DNA of 586 bases, taken from NCBI RefSeq assembly GCF_003334255.1, contig NZ_QOWU01000220.1, one strand, 5' to 3'. The translations under genes and the position numbers were made by a program. This document shows, piece after piece, positions 1 to 586 of the stretch. Within the stretch, counting starts at the first letter, position 1. The number at the start of each line of letters is the position of its first letter. Under the pieces are notes generated by a model, which worked only from the letters and a program-made list of their open reading frames with translations, was not told where the DNA came from and ran no database searches. This DNA is from Escherichia coli. GTDB taxonomy: Bacteria; Pseudomonadota; Gammaproteobacteria; Enterobacterales; Enterobacteriaceae.

Positions 1-6
1 TCTTCG

Positions 7-46
7 TCAAAAACAACGGGGCGACCATCAAACAGCGTCGCCCCGT
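7..46 (-). terminator. Rho-independent (intrinsic) terminator for the minus-strand gene: perfect 10-bp GC-rich stem, 11-nt loop, followed by a U-tract
   Basis: Plus-strand 16-25 ACGGGGCGAC is the exact reverse complement of 37-46 GTCGCCCCGT (8 of 10 stem pairs are G:C), separated by 11 nt (26-36). On the minus strand the stem is immediately followed by TGTTTTTGA (plus coordinates 15..7). It lies about 51 nt downstream of the CDS stop at 98-100. On the plus strand the hairpin is followed by gttcatgctg, which is not U-rich, so it looks unidirectional. Confidence 0.55.
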
Positions 47-97
47 GTTCATGCTGCTCGAGTGCATCCAGCACTGCAGCACGGATATCAGTGTGTT

Positions 98-553
98 TCA
101 TCGTTTTATCGCAATCCTCAGTTGTTGTTTCAGCGCGGATGCCAGTTCTCCGGGCAGGCGTTCACGCCGGATACGGTCAACATTCTCATCAAACGCCTGT
201 TTCAGTGGGGCCGCCATCGGGATTTTCACCACATCAATAGGGTAACGGTTTTTCCCGGCCACACGCTGCATGACATGCCAGCGACCGTTTTTTAATCGCT
301 GAATGAATGCCCGCTGATACCGATGCTGACCGGCTTTAAGTATGCTGTTCGGACGACGGCCCAGCATCCTGATCCCCAGCTTAATCACTGGAAGATCACC
401 GCGGTTAACGATAATTTTTGCGTTCGGATTTCTGACCGTCGCCCTTTTCAGTCTGGACCGTTCCTTAACCAGTTTCCGGCGTACCTTTGTCTCCCGGGCA
501 ACCTGTGATGAAGACTGATTAATCGCCGTTGTGGCCACGCGGTTAATCGTCAT
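98..553 (-). CDS. Hypothetical highly basic (Arg/Lys-rich) protein, probable nucleic-acid-binding; 151 aa from ATG at 553 to TGA at 98-100; true start may lie upstream of the window
   Basis: Longest ORF in the window, covering about 78% of it. My codon-by-codon reverse-complement translation reproduces the supplied 151-aa protein. It has 24 Arg and 13 Lys versus 9 Asp/Glu, no Cys, and non-repetitive, protein-like composition. A strong hairpin plus U-tract lies about 50 nt downstream of the stop on the same strand. No family assigned; recognition is from memory only and no search was possible. No obvious Shine-Dalgarno sequence precedes the ATG at 551-553 (upstream minus-strand sequence ccggcggcttcagcaATG) and the frame is open through 554-586. 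Confidence 0.6.
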   Translation of the reverse strand: MTINRVATTAINQSSSQVARETKVRRKLVKERSRLKRATVRNPNAKIIVNRGDLPVIKLGIRMLGRRPNSILKAGQHRYQRAFIQRLKNGRWHVMQRVAGKNRYPIDVVKIPMAAPLKQAFDENVDRIRRERLPGELASALKQQLRIAIKR

Positions 554-586
554 TGCTGAAGCCGCCGGAATGGCGTTTTTACGAAC

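Follow-up and report, generated by a model that had tools for sequence, protein, structure and literature searches.

The protein gpZ of bacteriophage lambda is the prototype of the tail completion proteins (TCP, Ne1) (PMC11784142) and the last protein to be joined to the tail before the joining of head and tail. It has been found in lambda virions by mass spectrometry and is not resolved in cryo-EM maps (PMC10721106). Virions that lack gpZ still assemble, but they are about 500-fold less infectious (PMC11661146). In phage 80alpha, the equivalent protein is present as one monomer in the proximal tail lumen, where it touches the N-termini of the tape-measure protein as well as the DNA end (PMC11661146). 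Tail completion proteins are described as starting with a long bent helix and ending with another long one, the two being separated by a loop or beta insertion, and AlphaFold models of gpZ display the same helix-loop-helix plan together with an extra beta domain (PMC11661146).

The locus considered here lies on a stretch of 586 nt of Escherichia coli DNA (contig NZ_QOWU01000220.1), referred to as the window, which contains the larger part of a gene of this family on its minus strand. The minus strand of the window matches many complete E. coli genomes with 100% identity over all 586 nt, including that of strain ATCC 25922 (NZ_CP009072.1, 3967722-3968307). This identical ATCC 25922 locus, designated L001, was used to extend the sequence; the window corresponds to L001 4001-4586, and its own flank was taken as equivalent to that of the copy. 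The genes at L001 follow the order portal, S49 protease, decoration, major capsid, FI, FII-like, gpZ homologue, U, major tail, G, T and tape measure, in which the order FI-FII-Z-U-V-G of lambda is retained. The window almost certainly lies within the late (structural) operon of an E. coli lambdoid prophage. Among isolated lambdoid phages, those of the PhiR12 and PhiR5 series are 95-96% identical to the window, and phage 2B8 and lambda are about 82-85% identical, lambda over the 3' half of the gene only. This confinement of the megablast match to lambda (query 274-586, about 82%) is consistent with lambdoid mosaicism.

The assignment to the gpZ family draws on profiles, on position and on full-length alignment. 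The fragment encoded in the window matches the Pfam family PF06763 (Minor_tail_Z, "Prophage minor tail protein Z (GPZ)") with E = 2.8e-50, its residues 2-162 aligning with model positions 15-190 of 190, so that about 14 model positions fall outside the window. The profile phrog_27 ("tail completion or Neck1") is matched with E = 3.8e-55 over positions 30-191 of 199. Both profiles are thus covered over nearly their whole length, and both matches begin well inside their models exactly at the window edge, as is typical when a query has been truncated. The part of the gene in the window is 100% identical to the RefSeq coding sequence WP_000974996.1 (E. coli ATCC 25922, 177 aa; L001 3956-4489), PF06763 is present in all 120 best homologues of a database-wide protein search, and the gene is located between an FII-like joining gene and a U tail terminator gene. 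The alignment with lambda gpZ is collinear over the full length, including the start methionine, and runs from M1 to R177, the latter corresponding to R192 of lambda. NCBIfam models matched neither the gpZ nor the gpU homologue, only the FII-like neighbour, which scores above the cutoff of NF049848 (tail_join_FII). On the sequence evidence given here and below, the gpZ homologue is almost certainly a protein of 177 aa whose start lies 45 nt outside the window, the window holding its residues 16-177 and the ATG at 553 being codon 27 of the tail completion gene of a lambdoid prophage (Table 1). The plus strand of the window also has open reading frames, of 49-77 aa, but these are mere shadows of the Z and U genes in antisense.

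Table 1. Features of the window, with the evidence for each.
Feature	Window coordinates	Strand	Evidence
gpZ-family gene, 3' 489 nt (codons 16-177 and TGA stop)	98..586	-	PF06763; phrog_27; identity to WP_000974996.1
Met27 codon, internal to the gpZ homologue and not its start	551..553	-	Alignment with Met27 of lambda gpZ; start positions of homologues
Codons 16-26 of the gpZ homologue (VRKNAIPAASA), coding, no 5' leader	554..586	-	Translation; conservation at the protein level
gpU-like tail terminator gene, 5' end (33 codons and 2 nt), cut by the other window edge	1..101	-	phrog_37

A first-pass annotation, made from the letters of the window, had called an ORF of 151 aa (98..553) from the minus-strand ATG at 553..551 and had marked this start as uncertain, with a possible truncation by the window edge. 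Its description of the sequence is accurate: the ATG is present, it is preceded by the 15 nt ccggcggcttcagca, and the frame is free of stops from 586 down to the ATG. Its judgement that the ribosome-binding site is weak also stands, as the best duplex with the anti-Shine-Dalgarno sequence in the 20 nt upstream reaches -5.0 kcal/mol (UCCGGCGGC, 7 nt spacing). It had offered two explanations for the 151-aa product, namely that it forms the C-terminal portion of a longer protein or that it belongs to a translationally coupled gene. The first is borne out, the longer protein having 177 aa and therefore 26 residues more; the second finds no support at this position, since no upstream gene ends near 553. 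The suspected truncation is likewise real, as the identical ATCC 25922 copy stays open for 15 codons past 586 until it reaches an ATG at L001 3956.

The DNA beyond the window edge carries the elements expected of a start. The 45 nt past position 586 end, in the ATCC 25922 copy, in ...TAAacgcAGGGGGAaattATG; the DNA upstream of the ATG reads ...cgacgaTAAacgcAGGGGGAaattATGgcgataaaagggcttgatcag..., and the start region reads ...cgacgaTAAacgcAGGGGGAaattATGgcgataaaaggg.... A strong Shine-Dalgarno sequence, AGGGGGA, is located 4-5 nt upstream of this ATG, and the corresponding anti-Shine-Dalgarno duplex amounts to -9.4 kcal/mol (GCAGGGGGA, 4 nt spacing). An in-frame TAA, which is the stop of the FII-like gene, precedes the ATG by 15 nt (5 codons including the stop, the 4 sense codons being TQGE-I), and translation of the gpZ frame across this stop gives ...NRRR*TQGEIMAIKGLDQAIDNLSRVRKNAIPAASAMTINRV.... 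Between the TAA and codon 32, the only in-frame ATG, GTG or TTG codons are the ATG at L001 3956, the Met27 codon at 4034 and a GTG at 4049, the duplex being nil at the GTG. The upstream arrangement is the same in every close relative examined; the DNA of the relatives retains both the Shine-Dalgarno sequence and the ATG, while the spacer differs. Initiation almost certainly takes place at the ATG outside the window, with AGGGGGA as its ribosome-binding sequence and 15 nt after the TAA of the FII-type gene, and the ATG at 553..551 simply encodes Met27 within the N-terminal helical region.

The simplest alternative holds that the ATG at 553..551 is the sole real start, that the protein has 151 aa, and that the frame is open upstream by chance. 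This ATG is indeed the first in the window, and the estimate of the first-pass annotation that 11 stop-free codons have a chance of roughly 60% was reproduced (0.59 with uniform codons, 0.60 with the composition of the window); not weighed there was the open frame as a whole, which starts at the window edge, runs for 162 codons until the stop and has a chance probability of about 5e-4. The homologues speak against such a start. Among the 120 best, 88 share exactly the start of the 177-aa protein and none begins at the equivalent of Met27. Two observations had been named as confirming 553, a stop just beyond 586 and homologues starting at the same methionine, and both turned out negative. The gpZ proteins of lambda (192 aa), 2B8 (177 aa) and PhiR12_1 (177 aa), with 73%, 82% and 98% identity to the gpZ homologue, respectively, all begin with MAIKGL and are collinear with it from M1, and the ATG of the window aligns with Met27 of lambda gpZ (AAAMAINRV). 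In the column of Met27, the 120 homologues carry M in 92 cases and W, Q or H in 14 (W 9, Q 4, H 1), so that Met27 is not conserved as Met.

The residues that precede Met27 also behave as protein. Full-length relatives with 54-60% identity are found in six genera (Citrobacter, Salmonella, Gibbsiella, Brenneria, Erwinia and Klebsiella), and M1, G5, N12, L13, P22 and A24 are invariant among them, which places the 26 residues before Met27 under constraint at the protein level. A comparison of codons 1-26 with those of lambda reveals 24 nucleotide differences, 17 of which occupy third positions; 9 codons are changed synonymously, and in 9 others the residue is replaced, mostly conservatively. In addition, the Pfam model is entered at position 15 right at the window edge, and a start at Met27 would remove one predicted helix and part of the second. 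In view of this conservation, the variability of Met27 and the difference in duplex strength (-5.0 vs -9.4 kcal/mol), we regard it as extremely unlikely that Met27 is the only start.

The predicted structure is in line with a 177-aa protein. An AlphaFold2 model built on an alignment of 13 sequences (mean pLDDT 78, pTM 0.67) contains two helices at residues 4-16 and 20-48, then a beta region in the centre and, at the C-terminus, a long helix (140-176), and as modelled it matches what has been published on the architecture of tail completion proteins. Since Met27 falls inside the second predicted helix (20-48), a start there deletes the first helix and roughly two turns of the second. A phmmer search with the full-length protein against PDB sequences gave no hit, and a Foldseek search of the model against PDB chains gave nothing below E = 0.5, its top hits (OspA/OspB and others) being meaningless; with neither a sequence nor a fold match to the solved tail completion proteins, the likeness to them is drawn from the published descriptions.

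It can also be asked whether the 177-aa protein is accompanied by a minor isoform of 151 aa that arises from internal initiation at Met27. Low-level initiation at this codon would yield a gpZ form that lacks the first helix and that might serve, for example, in regulating tail completion or in positioning the DNA end. A weak GGCGG about 8 nt upstream could assist such initiation, and Met27 is kept in the 92 of 120 homologues that are the E. coli lambdoid copies. However, other genera carry W, Q or H in place of Met27, the codon has a poor ribosome-binding site, it lies deep within a region coding for a predicted helix and displays no special conservation at the nucleotide level, and no isoform of this kind is reported for gpZ (PMC10721106, PMC11784142, PMC11661146). 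The isoform is accordingly judged very improbable, and with it the regulatory role that it could play.

The junction with the upstream gene leads to another alternative. The FII-type gene (L001 3587-3940) ends 15 nt before the ATG of the 177-aa protein, the two genes being tightly packed with no overlap. FII-type and Z-type genes share one frame both in L001 and in PhiR12_1, where they are split by the TAA and 4 sense codons.

Read-through of the in-frame FII stop in this prophage could, on this basis, generate an FII-Z fusion, given that 3587-3940 and 3956-4489 share a frame with only the TAA and 4 codons between them; the C-terminal-only match to phrog_8274 (positions 191-354) indicates moreover that some phage annotations contain longer proteins with a Z-like domain. 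Yet the genes lie in different frames in lambda (7612 vs 7977) and in 2B8, so that the shared frame looks coincidental here, TAA is a strong stop, and a strong Shine-Dalgarno sequence and an ATG follow directly after it. We consider a fusion by read-through to be practically negligible as an explanation, and the separately initiated protein of 177 aa is retained. As to phrog_8274 itself (354 profile positions, no function given), it is the best PHROG by score (E = 8.2e-71); its member proteins seem to be longer, with a Z-like C-terminal half, and may represent fusions or mis-annotated merged ORFs.

A start still further upstream was considered on account of the homologues P0001 (204 aa) and P0019 (218 aa) and was rejected: both are singletons from one or a few contigs, and in their extensions the 3' end of FII is translated in a frame other than that of the reference sequence, which implies indels or assembly errors. 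Both proteins begin within the 3' end of FII, P0019 carries an internal insertion besides, and a further singleton homologue, P0008, has an unrelated C-terminal tail; such extensions translate the adjacent genes out of frame. All three look like indel or assembly artefacts, or like pseudogenised prophage copies.

At the opposite end of the gene, the downstream junction is of the overlapping type. The TGA stop of the gpZ homologue (window 100..98) overlaps the ATG of the gpU-like gene (101..99) as ATGA, within the sequence ...aaacgATGAaac.... In L001, the gpU-like gene occupies 4486-4881 and overlaps the gpZ homologue (3956-4489) by 4 nt, and the same ATGA-type overlap exists in lambda between Z (7977-8555) and U (8552-8947). 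Although the gpU-like gene is partial in the window, 33 residues suffice for a match to phrog_37 ("tail terminator") with E = 5.1e-10, which supports its membership in the gpU family; the full gene in L001 encodes WP_000683079.1 (131 aa, "phage minor tail U family protein"). The ATGA overlap suggests that translation of Z, the tail completion gene, is likely coupled to that of U, the tail terminator gene. The idea of coupling put forward in the first-pass annotation thus applies to the Z-U junction, at the far end of the gene, and not to 553.

Among the described systems, close counterparts of the window protein are gpZ of phages PhiR12_1 (XSB41629.1) and 2B8 (YP_009909843.1). These variants have the same length of 177 aa, the same short central segment and the same start, and differ from the window protein by few substitutions; they belong to isolated or induced phages, whereas the window matches a resident prophage. 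Lambda gpZ (NP_040590.1, 192 aa) shares with the window protein the N-terminus MAIKGL, Met27, 73% identity over the full length, the place between FII and U and the ATGA-type overlap of 4 nt with U. In contrast, it is longer by 15 residues (192 vs 177 aa), which the alignment shows as one gap of 10 columns and another of 5 within a central segment rich in Arg and Lys, where NARVVLSRRRRRKKGQRSSLKGGG of lambda is replaced by IRMLGRRPN. The segment that lacks the 15 lambda residues lies at about 270-330 of the window (minus strand, residues 86-105) and is common to 2B8 and PhiR12_1. Both length classes of gpZ are abundant, with database clusters of more than 1000 members each. The similarity to lambda that megablast detects begins only downstream of this central segment, which suggests that a mosaic recombination joint lies within the gene. 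More distant counterparts are 80alpha gp51, SPP1 gp16.1, HK97 gp10 and T5 p143, whose genes, like the window gene, follow the head genes and precede that of the tail terminator; the architecture predicted for the window protein resembles the one published for such proteins, and the role is presumably the same, within the proximal tail at the tape-measure N-termini and the DNA end.

Sequences resembling the window are widespread in the species. Of 5426 complete E. coli genomes, 3713 contain matches at lower identity, which shows that lambdoid tail modules are common in E. coli. A single genome has such sequences at as many as 7 places, and 28 of the places are on plasmids.

Altogether, public records already contain annotations of the gene together with its start, neighbours and family, and this is ordinary known biology. 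An ORF called from the window alone is mis-started at an internal methionine and loses 26 N-terminal residues, and the consequence is one of annotation hygiene only. By analogy with the characterised phages, the gpZ homologue of this prophage would be the final protein to join the completed tail ahead of its union with the head, and it would be carried in the virion and needed for full infectivity. It probably positions the DNA end or the N-termini of the tape-measure protein in the proximal tail lumen.
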